Positions 12,001 to 15,000 of a DNA stretch of 64,000 nucleotides are shown here, in pieces. A program made the position numbers. Source of the stretch: Escherichia coli (GTDB lineage: Bacteria; Pseudomonadota; Gammaproteobacteria; Enterobacterales; Enterobacteriaceae); NCBI RefSeq assembly GCF_003018115.1, contig NZ_CP027457.1. The stretch is one strand, 5' to 3'. Each line of letters begins with the position of its first letter. The first letter of the stretch is position 1.

Positions 12001-15000
12001 TTACCGTTATTCTGCTGGTGGTCTGTGGTGCGCTTAGTCTGGGGCTGAATCATTACCGCGATAACGCCATCATCTACAAAGCGCAGCGCGATAAAAAAGC
12101 CAGAGAGCTGGAGCTGGCAAACGCAACCATTACTGATATGCAGGTGCGCCAGCGCGATGTTGCTGCGCTCGATGCAAAATACTCGAGGGAATTAGCCGAT
12201 GCGAGAGCTGAAAATGAAACTCTGCGTGCTGATGTTGCCGCTGGTCGTAAGCGCCTGCGGATCAACGCCACCTGCTCCGGTACCGTGCGTGAAGCCACCG
12301 GCACCTCCGGCGTGGGCAATGATGCCGCCGTCGAACTCTCTCCGGTTGCTGGACGAAACGTTCTCGGTATCAGAGACGGAATCATCAGCGACCAGGCTGC
12401 ATTGAGAATGCTTCAGGAATATATCCGCACTCAGTGTATTAACTAGTATTTTTGTTATCCGGAGAATGCATGAAGAAATTACTGGTAACTGTAAAGCCTT
12501 TTCAGGGAACAATTCCGTTCCGTATTTTGCAGCGTGGTCGTGTTCTTGTTGAAGGTTCGTTCAGTGGTAAATGTACGCAATTACACTCCCGGACCTTTCA
12601 GGTGAATGCCACGAATGAAGAGCTAACCGTTGAGTGTACGATGAATGCCGCTAAATGCCGTATGGTATCGGCTGCATTACAGCCTGTGTGTTGAGCGACC
12701 TTATTATCCATGCGCGGTATTGTCGCCGTATTCCCGTATTAACAGAGACCGCAGCCCGACAGGGAGACTCCTCTGCGCGAGTGTGCGGGGATAATCAAAA
12801 ACGATACACACCGGGGTTTATCGCGTTAACGGAGCGCGGCGTTGTCCCCTCATGGTCGCTGGTCCGGTGCGATGGTGGAAGAAACCGGACGATGTGTTAC
12901 CTCGCATGACCTGTTATGTCATGTGTCTGATTTGTGATTTAAGTCGGATAATTGTCGTTGCCATTAAGCAGAGGATTGATGGCCGACAGGGTGGCATTGT
13001 TAGAATAAGACTTATTCTTATCTGTGCCGGGAATGAAAATGAAAAGAAATCTTCCGTTAATTATTTTGTTGTCTTCTCTGGTTATGGGCTGTACGCAACA
13101 TAAAACAGATATGCCCCGACAGTTGGTTAAGGCATTACCACAATATCCGGCCTATGCAGCGGCAAATTATATAAAGGGACGGGTTGATGTGAAGTTTGAT
13201 ATTGGTGCTGATGGTACTGTCACCCGAATTGAGTTTATCCGTTCAGAGCCGCACCATCTGTTTGATGAGCAGGTTGTAAAGGCGATGGCAAAATGGCGAT
13301 TTGAGAAGGACAGGCCGCGTAAAGGCGTGAAGAAAACGTTTATCTTTAGTCCTTCTGCACCCTGATTATTTCATCAGAAATTAATTATCACTCTGTTGTT
13401 ATTCTGTACATCCCGGCTGGGTAAGTCTTGTTCCGCCGGGTATGAAGATGAAATATTGTTGGAGGACAGTGGGTACCTGCTCCTGTAACCGAACGTTCAT
13501 TTCTCGTTATTTGTCATGCTGGCCGGGCGCAGGTGCGTTGCATCTGTTGCCAGCCTTCTCCTGCAGGCTTCAATAACCCACGCTGAAAAGTTACCGGACC
13601 CTTTATGCTCAAGGGCGATGTTGATCTGTTCAATCATGTGATTGGGGAAACGGATATTGCGGGTTGTGGTTCTGCGGGTCCGGTTTTTCGATGACATATT
13701 TATTTCCTTTACTGATTGCCATATGACGGGGATTTTACATGGCTGAGCTTCGTACACTCCAGAGCAGAATCAAAACACTGAATACCCGACGGGTGAATAT
13801 TCTGAAGGGTGAACAGCGTCGTGTCAGTGGCAGTGCACGTGTTTCCCTCAAGCGTCATATCTGGCTCAGGGATGCCGGGCAGTGCTGTCTCTGTGGTCGT
13901 GTGGTTGACCTCTGTGACAGTGAACTCGATCACCGAATTGCACTTCAGTTCGGTGGTGGTAATGAGGAGACGAATCTCTGGACGCTCTGTACCGAATGCC
14001 ATCGACAAAAGTCTGCTCGTGAAGCGGCGGGTGGTATGCCGGACCCGACGCTGCCGGAGGTGTCCGGAGGTAGTGGCAGAGCGGACGACATCATCGGACT
14101 GTAACCCGACCGGGGGGGGTATCATTCGGCGTAAAAAACGATCGCTCCGGACACCGCGCCCCCTCTCACGCAGAGAAAAAATTCCCGTTTCAGGGCAGTT
14201 AACATGTTAACTGGCTGTCCGGGCATTTTTGCGGTTTTTATCTTTATTATTCAGTTTGTTGCGCGGAAAAAATGTTAACTGGCTTTTTCAGCAAATGTTA
14301 ACCAGGCAGCAGTTAACATTTGCGGCATGAGACGCCGGGAAAAATGGGCTGAACCATACCCGGCTGAGTGCGTTCTGGACCCGGGAGGAGGCTGTGCTGA
14401 CAACGCAAAAACGAAAATTTGCGCTGGCGCTCATGTCCGGGAAAAACAAAACAGCGTCAGCCATTGCCGCCGGTTATTCGGCGAAGACAGCCAGGGTTAA
14501 AGGCTCGCAGCTGGCAAAAGATCCGGAGGTGCTTGCGTTTATAGCCCGTAAACAGTGCGAGACGGTGGAGGTGGATGAGGTTCCTGTTTACCGGCAGAAA
14601 AAATCAGAGCAGGAGGATAAACCCCGTCGCCGTGAGGCGGCTGCAATACCACAGCCGGACGAAACAAATCCGGAGATGCCACCGCCCGTGGTGATATCTC
14701 CTGGTATTGAGTATATGGAGGACGGTCTTCCCGATCCGGTGAAAGCGATGGGGCGTCTTCTGGTGGAGAACATTAATACCGACCCCAGGCTGGCGCTGGA
14801 TGCGGCTTATAAGCTGGCGCAGTTCACGCACCACAAAAAAGGGGATGCCGGTAAAAAATCGGCAAAAGGTGACGCGGCGAAAAAAGCGGCTAACCGTTTT
14901 GCGGTGCCACCACCACCCCGACTGGTGGTGAATAATGATAATGAGGGCAACGGATGATACCTGTGTGGAGCACGGCCTGCCCGGACTGGGCAGAGCGCCT

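Follow-up and report, generated by a model that had tools for sequence, protein, structure and literature searches.

The ylcI gene beside the packaging genes of an Escherichia coli prophage is a member of the YlcI/YnfO family and may encode a small ribbon-helix-helix regulator

The window analyzed here comprises 64,000 nucleotides of the Escherichia coli contig NZ_CP027457.1, and on its minus strand we found a small gene, ylcI, which is an ordinary and already annotated member of a gene family of lambdoid prophages, YlcI/YnfO (DUF3950). Its reading frame (13697 to 13497) is a real protein-coding gene, for which homology and selection reach far beyond chance. The synteny of the family is fixed, and ylcI is a stable marker of the point at which, in lambdoid prophages, the lysis or cargo genes meet the DNA-packaging genes. 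As to its function, we propose that the family protein forms a ribbon-helix-helix (RHH) dimer, is made from a leftward transcript when the late operon is off and acts as a small DNA-binding regulator. We assign this reading a probability of about 50%. The features of the locus are as follows:

13497-13697, minus strand: ylcI/ynfO-family coding sequence, 66 amino acids plus stop codon (open reading frame and translation, Pfam DUF3950, NCBIfam YlcI_YnfO_N, 100% identity to WP_000095744.1, dN/dS)
13705-13709, minus strand: Shine-Dalgarno-like AAGGA, 7 nt 5' of the ylcI ATG (minus-strand sequence)
13533-13670, minus strand: predicted ribbon-helix-helix core, residues 10-55, composed of a strand (10-18) and two helices (19-32, 37-55) (AlphaFold models of the monomer and of the linked pseudo-dimer; Foldseek)
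13500-13547, minus strand: variable, low-confidence C-terminal tail, residues 51-66 (alignments, pLDDT)
13698-13738, no strand: spacer of 41 bp that separates the start codons of ylcI and the divergent HNH gene (sequence; 42-bp distance in 119 of 119 HNH-type viral loci)
13739-14104, plus strand: HNH endonuclease gene, which opens the packaging module and points away from ylcI (Pfam HNH, E=7.5e-7; phrog_589)
13039-13365, plus strand: gene of a TonB_C-domain lipoprotein, an optional cargo cassette convergent with ylcI (Pfam TonB_C, E=5.8e-15; lipobox LVMGC)
13410-13440, no strand: GC-rich hairpin lacking a U-tract, between the convergent TonB-like gene and ylcI (folding energy -16 kcal/mol, z = -3.7 versus shuffles)

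Translation of the window yielded a minus-strand frame with an ATG at 13697 and a TGA stop codon at 13499-13497. The encoded 66-residue protein is basic (pI 11.5; 12 lysines and arginines versus 5 acidic residues), and its coordinates, length and basic character match the original prediction. The gene lies, as had been stated, between the TonB-like lipoprotein gene and the HNH gene, both on the plus strand, and the annotations of JLK-2012 and RM10466 call the latter an HNH endonuclease. Since 71 open reading frames of at least 30 amino acids overlap the 5.5 kb around ylcI, the length of the frame is uninformative by itself. The view that the late region contains no convincing minus-strand gene other than ylcI agrees with the list of open reading frames of at least 110 amino acids, which sets the scope of this comparison. 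An extended version of 86 amino acids starting from GTG 13757 was rejected because all homologues start with MS(S/T)KN and because the DNA homology between the phage types begins exactly at the ylcI ATG.

The window protein matched Pfam PF13132 (DUF3950) with 71.8 bits (cut-off 25, E=4.2e-20) and NCBIfam NF041551 (YlcI_YnfO_N) with 35.3 bits (cut-off 30), and its PHROG family is phrog_949. The gene is 100% identical to a RefSeq-annotated gene (WP_000095744.1) of the Stx2a prophage of E. coli RM10466, and DNA homologous to ylcI was detected in 4183 of 5426 complete E. coli genomes. Residues 36-45 of the protein read NFSAWVIEAC, so that the FSAWV and AC motifs of the family are present, and the size falls into the family range of about 50-80 residues. 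When 21 diverse family members were compared, R16, F37, S38 and V41 were invariant and W40, A44 and C45 nearly so; intact homologues with identities as low as about 33% carry the same motif. Over residues 1-50 the identity to the lambda/DLP12 and Qin-like copies is about 90%, and YlcI (DLP12) and YnfO (Qin) of K-12 are equal in size to the window protein, have the NFSAWVIEAC motif in common with it and are encoded, like it, divergently from the first packaging gene and antisense to the late genes. Differences are confined to the C-terminal tail (residues 51-66) and to the neighboring genes. The window has the HNH gene 42 bp upstream and the TonB-like gene downstream, whereas the K-12 copies have nohD across cos and ybcW or ydfO at these places. 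An intact copy is found on the minus strand of phage lambda (48109-48303), where it is the last gene before the right cos end and lies about 200 bp away from it. The lambda 'orf-64' is not this copy but lambdap73, located near pR' and 6S RNA, and a Nu1-Orf64 two-hybrid match, which presumably concerns lambdap73, was not applied to ylcI. In a literature search we found no functional study of ylcI, ynfO or DUF3950.

The frame is under strong purifying selection. Over codons 1-50, the window and lambda alleles differ by 23 synonymous and 5 non-synonymous changes (dN/dS 0.026), which are concentrated at third codon positions (5, 0 and 23 differences at positions one, two and three). Comparison of the window with the lambda, DLP12, Qin and Stx2 alleles gave dN/dS values of 0.03-0.09, and the protein is still about 90% identical although synonymous sites are close to saturation (pS 0.67). 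Conservation fades after about codon 50 in alignments between alleles. A frame lacking conservation, together with the lack of a minus-strand transcript, had been named as the outcome that would speak against the prediction, and for the frame, with a dN/dS of about 0.03 against lambda, the opposite was observed. Short open reading frames are plentiful on both strands of this region and the lambda reference record leaves its copy unannotated, which might suggest a chance antisense frame or DNA whose conservation has a non-coding cause, for example a site close to cos. However, the third-position bias and the dN/dS values refute this explanation, intact homologues are found down to about 33% identity with a common motif, and an Rfam scan of 11500-15000 returned nothing relevant. 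We consider the probability that ylcI is not a gene to be negligible.

The fold of the protein was explored by structure prediction. In the AlphaFold monomer two helices (residues 19-32 and 37-55) were obtained, and a linked pseudo-dimer, which was built with an artificial linker, added the strands 10-18 and 82-90 with a core pLDDT of 80-88 and a pTM of 0.65. The strand-helix-helix topology with strand pairing across the dimer was present in this pseudo-dimer model. From about residue 55 onwards the pLDDT of the monomer drops (means of 60 and 47 for blocks of 10 residues) and falls below 50 at residues 62-66. In Foldseek searches the best PDB matches of the pseudo-dimer were TraY chains of the F plasmid (probability 1.0, E about 0.02, TM 0.54-0.72), followed by VirC2, and the matches of the monomer were mostly RHH proteins (ParD, NikR, Arc, NikA, MazE9, YiiF, CdbA), the E-values for the YlcI models all being above 0.001. 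At the profile level, significant similarity to RHH families was not detected: the top PDB match, a CopG-family RHH protein in which S38 was aligned to the serine starting helix B, had an E-value of 0.11; Pfam RHH_6 was matched by 1 of 21 family members (E=0.092); and Pfam Arc was not matched at E-values up to 10. A direct hhalign comparison with Arc (probability 7%) placed T12, N14 and R16 opposite Arc Q9, N11 and R13. From these models it appears most likely that YlcI folds as a ribbon-helix-helix protein and dimerizes. An RHH-like C-terminus had been proposed for this protein; the predicted topology and the Foldseek matches support the fold but not its location, since it spans residues 10-55 approximately and the true C-terminus (51-66) is variable.

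TraY, VirC2, NikA, CopG and ParD have the doubled strand-helix-helix arrangement that is predicted for the YlcI dimer. TraY differs from it as a single chain with two natural tandem RHH repeats that acts at oriT in conjugation, and with only 8-12% sequence identity the likeness concerns the fold only. The P22 proteins Arc and Mnt are small RHH repressors encoded inside the late region (immI) from their own promoters, one of them opposing neighboring transcription. YlcI has an N-x-R-(aromatic)-P motif followed by helix A in common with Arc. However, there is no significant sequence relationship to Arc, ylcI has no antirepressor gene or other obvious target gene next to it, and the region 13698-13850 upstream of ylcI is free of operator-like repeats.

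If the proposed regulator is organized in this way, two YlcI chains would contribute one strand each (residues 10-18) to a beta-ribbon, which would read the major groove of DNA through T12, N14 and R16, the counterparts of the Arc residues named above; additional contacts to the backbone would come from the N-terminal arm, which is very basic (K4, R6, R8, R9). Sequence-specific DNA binding by such a beta-ribbon is putative, and the basic arm, the invariant R16 and the operator-like repeats upstream of related satellite genes give it indirect support. The gene would be expressed as long as Q-dependent late transcription is silent, by way of a leftward transcript of its own, probably in the lysogen or early after entry, and convergent late transcription through ylcI would then oppose its expression. 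The product may act as a small DNA-binding regulator, probably as a repressor. An analogy is provided by PICI-like satellites, in which DUF3950 genes are divergent from the main operon and lie behind repeats.

Because the spacer between ylcI and the HNH gene measures only 41 bp, any ylcI promoter reaches into the HNH coding region. A good sigma-70 consensus promoter was not present upstream of ylcI in the window, and the sole promoter-like match was weak (CTGACA-17-CAGAAT, 13827-13799, 9 of 12 positions). When the 120 nt 5' of the ATG were compared between HNH-type and lambda-type contexts, local alignment scores were no better than those of shuffled sequences. For this reason a TCAG...AAATC match seen in a MAFFT alignment was dismissed as not meaningful, and a conserved autoregulatory operator is not evident, despite the invariance of residues that putatively read DNA. 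On the expression side, stranded RNA-seq of uninduced MG1655 lists ybcW and ylcI as a pair of convergent, overlapping transcripts in at least 50% of the 58 samples, data that refer to the K-12 orthologue with an upstream context differing from that of the window prophage. A terminator-like call inside the lambda and DLP12 copies is probably spurious, its arms resembling a direct repeat (GCGGGTT) paired via G-T only, and the hairpin at 13410-13440 was not called as an intrinsic terminator. Independent regulation, as originally suggested for this gene, is plausible in view of its own ribosome-binding site, its antisense orientation to the late operon and the transcription of K-12 ylcI in uninduced cells, but the window offers no convincing promoter for it. 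Lysogeny-expressed genes that lie antisense within the late operon of a phage and are shut off by late transcription have been described, Tha being an example (introduction of PMC12288877). ylcI resembles lambda bor and the Tha/Tai 'noncontiguous operon' in opposing late transcription, in its own translation signals and in the expression of its K-12 orthologue without induction; the products of these other genes are envelope or tail-interfering factors, not DNA-binding proteins.

The location of the gene invites a different explanation, in which YlcI binds near cos or binds TerS and assists or interferes with cos recognition. In one version it would be expressed in the lysogen to keep related phages or satellites, whether superinfecting or co-resident, from being packaged, and it would be switched off by the late transcription of its own phage. 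Among 240 viral loci from three allele groups, 228 had enough flanking sequence, and in 210 of these the nearest upstream feature was a divergent first packaging gene, which was either the HNH gene, exactly 42 bp away, or Nu1/NohD at a distance of 388-540 bp that includes cos (Nu1 about 389 bp away across cos in the Nu1-type context); most of the remaining loci contained truncated nu1, IS insertions or deletions. The terminal position of the lambda copy at the right cos end fits a packaging-linked role, and so does the fusion of a YlcI-like domain to the N-terminal domain of TerS in two different PICI-like satellites. These RHH-TerS(N) fusions (P0245 and P0209) are 44% identical to each other end to end, and in their TerS part they share 66% identity with residues 2-54 of the window TerS. 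On the other hand, ylcI is antisense to the very operon that makes the packaging proteins, and its core remains about 90% identical beside two unrelated systems (Nu1-type and HNH plus Terminase_2-type), the cos regions of which have no significant similarity. The only repeats near ylcI, the family (A/C)ATGTTAAC at 14196-14323, are specific to the HNH-type context, and adjacency could simply mark a boundary between recombination modules. We therefore regard a packaging-linked function, which the original prediction had also mentioned, as a minor possibility. The satellites suggest a broader version, according to which the YlcI-type RHH domain would be a regulatory or packaging-site module common to lambdoid helpers and PICI-like satellites, and the target of phage YlcI would be TerS or DNA at or close to the packaging origin. 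The satellites would have placed the domain, fused to a helper-like TerS DNA-binding domain, in a master-regulator position behind subtype-specific operator repeats, and they might sense, mimic or block the helper, for instance by mixed RHH dimers or by competition at GTTAAC-type TerS sites. The satellite DUF3950 domain is 42% identical to the window protein, and the satellites are parasites of prophages that carry the packaging module of the window. Ahead of the satellite genes lie two or three perfect short palindromes or repeats, which overlap promoter-like elements and differ by protein subtype. Their genes are located between int/alpA and the replication operon, whereas the window ylcI is not preceded by such repeats and the satellite palindrome TGGTACGTACCA did not occur in the window beyond chance. 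The reading of the domain as a common module appears unlikely to us.

Two further explanations start from the partners that YlcI might have. As in RHH antitoxins, the core could dimerize and bind DNA while the variable, disordered tail binds a partner, YlcI being antitoxin-like or an adaptor. This is suggested by a PHROG comparison in which HicB-like antitoxins were matched weakly (E=0.007), by the antitoxins ParD and MazE9 among the structural matches and by the tail, which after residue 50 varies between alleles and is predicted with low confidence. Moreover, Qin-type ynfO is followed by a co-directional DUF1398 gene, and a DUF3950-DUF1398 fusion exists. In the window, however, no co-directional gene and hence no adjacent co-transcribed toxin gene follows ylcI, the next gene (TonB-like) being convergent; PADLOC gave no match for the protein, the downstream neighbors vary widely among the viral loci, and the variation of the tail coincides with a mosaic junction and need not mean partner specificity. 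An antitoxin or adaptor function is thus quite improbable. Regulation of the adjacent TonB-like cargo gene, which the original prediction had raised, would place YlcI at a perfect 8-1-8 palindrome, AGAATAAGaCTTATTCT (13002-13018), which lies just 5' of that gene and occurs nowhere else in the window (about 0.01 chance matches expected). A Fur-box reading of this palindrome was rejected with about 6 of 19 positions matching by eye. Among 80 viral contigs with the same ylcI allele (97-100% identity), the TonB-like gene was present in 46 and absent from about 31, and the palindrome was seen only in two examined loci that carry the TonB-like gene; the DUF3950-bearing loci of the lambda, DLP12, Qin-like, Stx2a and satellite types lacked it. 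Since gene and palindrome form an optional cassette, and since the YlcI family is spread far more widely than this cassette, a dedicated link is largely refuted by the distribution and very improbable despite the adjacency of the two genes.

As found here, ylcI matters little by itself, as it is already annotated and roughly three out of four complete E. coli genomes contain homologous DNA. What interest remains comes from the family, which is very common, under strong purifying selection, intact even in decayed prophages and invariably located at the boundary of cos and packaging genes. The testable RHH fold and the RHH-TerS fusions of the satellites offer concrete experimental openings for a gene that has long been ignored. 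If the link to packaging or to satellites were true, YlcI would be a new player in the helper-satellite conflict of Shiga-toxin phages.

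Profile comparison places the 66-aa open reading frame (ORF) between the TonB-like and HNH genes in the YlcI/YnfO family (Pfam DUF3950, PF13132), and we call it ylcI. It scored 71.8 bits against Pfam DUF3950 (gathering cut-off 25), 35.3 bits against the NCBIfam model YlcI_YnfO_N (cut-off 30) and 2e-33 against phrog_949, which has no assigned function. The original prediction of a basic 66-aa minus-strand gene at this place was borne out, as were the TonB-like and HNH flanking genes it described; the genes of this part of the window are:

11973-12446, Rz, a neighbour of ylcI
13039-13365, plus strand, TonB_C-domain lipoprotein gene (TonB-like gene), a neighbour of ylcI
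13697..13497, minus strand, ylcI (ATG 13697, TGA stop 13499-13497; 66 codons, from the ORF list and translation)
13739-14104, plus strand, HNH endonuclease gene, a neighbour of ylcI
14394-14957, small terminase gene (Terminase_2)
14954-16615, large terminase gene

AAGGA lies 7 nt 5' of the ylcI ATG (read from the sequence) and the encoded protein, MSSKNRTRRTTTRNIRFPNHMIEQINIALEHKGSGNFSAWVIEACRRRLATDATHLRPASMTNNEK, has a pI of 11.5 (12 K+R versus 5 D+E). A mechanical ORF list also gave an 86-aa version from GTG 13757, which is not the true start. The 66-aa start is correct because all homologues begin with MS(S/T)KN and DNA homology across phage types begins exactly at that ATG. In the late region (8-37 kb), the plus strand holds every long ORF that is not the shadow of a longer one. 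The length of 66 codons is unremarkable on its own: the 5.5 kb around ylcI are overlapped by 71 ORFs of 30 aa or more. As for the TonB_C lipoprotein, phrog_1267 tags it 'Rz-like spanin' (E=2e-42); the window's own Rz embeds an Rz1-like lipoprotein ORF (12199-12405), and the tag looks like an annotation artefact.

Lack of conservation of the frame had been named among the outcomes that would refute the prediction, and the frame proved to be conserved. Over codons 1-50, window and lambda ylcI differ by 23 synonymous and 5 non-synonymous changes (pS 0.67, pN 0.043, dN/dS 0.026; differences per codon position [5,0,23]), and dN/dS was 0.04-0.09 against the Stx2-type and Qin-like alleles. The conserved block runs from the ATG to about codon 50; outside it, the tail at the C-terminus and the flanks on either side are mosaic. 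Synonymous sites are near saturation while the protein is still ~90% identical, which rules out both an ORF arisen by chance and an element that is only non-coding; that the frame is not a gene is barely conceivable. The lambda homologue itself is an intact 64-aa frame on the minus strand (48303..48109 of NC_001416), located ~200 bp from the right cos end and carrying no annotated feature in that record. It is not lambda 'orf-64', a name that belongs to lambdap73 near pR'.

The fold was addressed by structure prediction. In a profile of 21 diverse members the pattern K-N-I-R-F-P..L.E.I...NFSAWV.EAC was recognized, with R16, F37, S38 and V41 invariant. AlphaFold modelling of the monomer with the 21-member alignment gave two helices (19-32, 37-55) and an extended N-terminus at a mean pLDDT of 69. 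Because the strands of ribbon-helix-helix (RHH) proteins arise only in dimers, we modelled YlcI as a linked pair, in which two copies were joined by a Gly-Ser linker and each alignment row was constructed identically. Each half of this pseudo-dimer was predicted to form a strand (10-18) followed by the two helices 19-32 and 37-55 (core pLDDT 80-88, pTM 0.65). Foldseek searches of the PDB returned chains of TraY from the F-plasmid relaxosome as top matches (probability 1.0, E about 0.02, TM 0.54-0.72), followed by VirC2; TraY is a natural tandem RHH protein. The match list of the monomer model consisted mostly of RHH proteins (ParD, NikR, Arc, NikA, MazE9, YiiF, CdbA). No Foldseek match of YlcI reached E <0.001, and sequence methods against RHH families remained sub-threshold throughout: the best PDB profile match was a CopG-family RHH protein (E=0.11), Pfam RHH_6 was matched at E=0.092 in one family member, and hhalign aligned YlcI with Arc at a probability of 7%, placing T12/N14/R16 on Arc Q9/N11/R13. 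These Arc residues contact the bases. Taken together, the models make an RHH fold probable. The expectation of an RHH-like C-terminus is thus supported as to the fold, but the predicted domain spans residues 10-55 and not the C-terminus alone.

No strong sigma-70 consensus promoter was found 5' of ylcI. The best match, CTGACA-17-CAGAAT (13827-13799, 9/12 positions), lies within HNH, and any ylcI promoter must reach into this gene because the two start codons are only 41 bp apart. When the 120 nt upstream of ylcI were compared between HNH-type and lambda-type contexts, no significant similarity was detected. A stable GC-rich hairpin that lacks a U-tract (13410-13440; -16 kcal/mol, z = -3.7) lies in the gap where the TonB-like and ylcI genes converge and may be a bidirectional 3'-end element; an Rfam scan of the ylcI region matched no family. 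In E. coli MG1655, according to ExcludonFinder, transcripts of ybcW and ylcI converge and overlap as a pair in at least 50% of 58 stranded RNA-seq samples (PMC12288877). The cells sampled were uninduced, with the late operon of DLP12 off, and this indirect K-12 evidence suggests that ylcI is transcribed independently. There is a precedent for such an antisense architecture, since phage genes (tha) that run antisense within late operons are silenced by late transcription (PMC12288877, introduction). The suggestion of independent regulation thus appears reasonable, with the K-12 transcript pair in its favour and the lack of a strong promoter match against it.

It is the upstream side of ylcI that is anchored. 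We sampled 240 IMG/VR loci from three allele groups, and in 210 of the 228 loci with sufficient upstream flank the nearest upstream feature was the divergent first packaging gene, either HNH at exactly 42 bp (119 loci) or Nu1/NohD at 388-540 bp across cos (91). The 18 exceptions were mostly IS insertions, deletions or truncated nu1 genes, and the divergent layout recurs in lambda, DLP12, a Qin-like prophage and Stx phages. The downstream side is variable (TonB-like, Rz, YbcW, Bor, DUF1398 or an 85-aa hypothetical gene). Among 80 loci with the window allele (97-100% identity), the TonB-like gene was present in 46 and absent from about 31. Just 5' of this gene lies a perfect 8-1-8 palindrome, AGAATAAGaCTTATTCT (13002-13018), which among the loci compared was found only in those bearing the TonB-like gene, so that it tracks the optional cassette and not ylcI; as a Fur box it is a poor match by eye. 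A dedicated regulatory pair is therefore unlikely, and the idea that ylcI regulates the TonB-like gene has become highly improbable. In the Qin-like prophage (L014, 2446-3147), a DUF1398 gene (YdfO/YbcV-type) follows ynfO co-directionally after 58 bp, and in one protein (P0154) DUF3950 is fused to DUF1398, a hint that the two genes form a unit in some prophages.

Divergent DUF3950 proteins (33-54% identity) were found in several other settings:

L008 4001-4180, L009 and L010 4001-4225, chromosomal DUF3950 genes in operons
Chromosomal operon: DUF2946, cytochrome bd oxidase subunits I and II, DUF3950, DUF2474
Chromosomal operon: DUF2946, TonB-dependent receptor, DUF3950, CopC
Other settings: downstream of cdtABC, beside integrases, and in PICI-like satellites
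Operator-like repeats 5' of satellite DUF3950 genes: L103 575-654, L104 4593-4646, L011 531-542, L097 23454-23543

The operons suggest a non-phage branch, possibly linked to metals or respiration. One PICI-like satellite, with int, AlpA-like, primase, TerS and capsid genes, sits within the prophage terL of E. coli 90-3040 (NZ_CP027459.1; L097, about 16800-25600), and its host prophage has the window's packaging module; the observations on satellites also draw on L003, L004 and L104. This 'helper-embedded PICI' configuration has been described, with no mention of DUF3950 (Mageeney et al. 2023, PMC10111431). In the L097 satellite, a YlcI-like gene of 60 aa lies divergent to an Icd-like/primase/TerS/capsid operon, and 5' of this gene two perfect TGGTACGTACCA palindromes, 33 bp apart, flank TATAAT. 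Other satellites have TGTGCGCACA x3, GTGCA(C)AAACAC x3 or GGTGCAC palindromes (TAGGTGCACATA) at this place, and the repeat varies with the DUF3950 subtype, which fits autoregulating, candidate operator-binding proteins. In two different satellites (L097, L104), a YlcI-like domain is fused to the N-terminal DNA-binding domain of TerS. These fusions are 44% identical end to end, in their TerS part they share 66% identity with residues 2-54 of the window TerS, and PGAP labels the L097 gene as pseudogene fragments. Five GTT(T/A)AACAC or GTTAACAC motifs precede one fusion gene and resemble the GTTAAC repeats in the cos spacer of the window, where five (A/C)ATGTTAAC copies in both orientations lie within 125 bp between HNH and terS (14196-14323). 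They include a perfect 18-bp palindrome, CAGTTAACATGTTAACTG; the three exact AATGTTAAC matches of the 64-kb window all fall here, and these repeats are probably sites in the cos region where the small terminase binds.

We consider it about an even bet (roughly 50%) that YlcI is a dimeric RHH regulator made when late transcription is off. The dimer would bind DNA and work as a small regulatory protein, probably a repressor. A leftward transcript of its own would supply it, and late transcription from the opposite direction would counteract its expression. The chief difficulty is that phages with unrelated upstream regions share the same putative DNA-reading residues without variation, so that the target would have to be very short, elsewhere in the phage, or in the host. 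A packaging-linked or packaging-interference factor seems unlikely. The satellite fusions and the invariant adjacency seen in synteny are the two findings that tie YlcI to packaging; the gene's orientation and the occurrence of the same core with two unrelated packaging systems speak against such a role. Still more doubtful is an RHH module shared by helper and satellite and acting on packaging or satellite control. An antitoxin-like adaptor using the variable tail is improbable; no partner gene accompanies ylcI here.

Both ylcI and its family had been annotated before, and the finding is known and ordinary. All 201 bases are 100% identical to the gene of WP_000095744.1 in the Stx2a prophage of E. 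coli RM10466, annotated as 'YlcI/YnfO family protein', and the RefSeq record of phage JLK-2012 annotates the same gene. Among 5426 complete E. coli genomes, 4183 contain homologous DNA, with as many as 12 copies in a genome, and the family is narrow, since only 181 clusters matched at E <0.001 among 1.84 billion representative proteins. Our data add a quantitative measure of the selection acting on the frame, an assignment of DUF3950 to the RHH fold from structural models, a packaging-side anchoring rule, the unannotated lambda copy and the RHH-TerS fusions of satellites.
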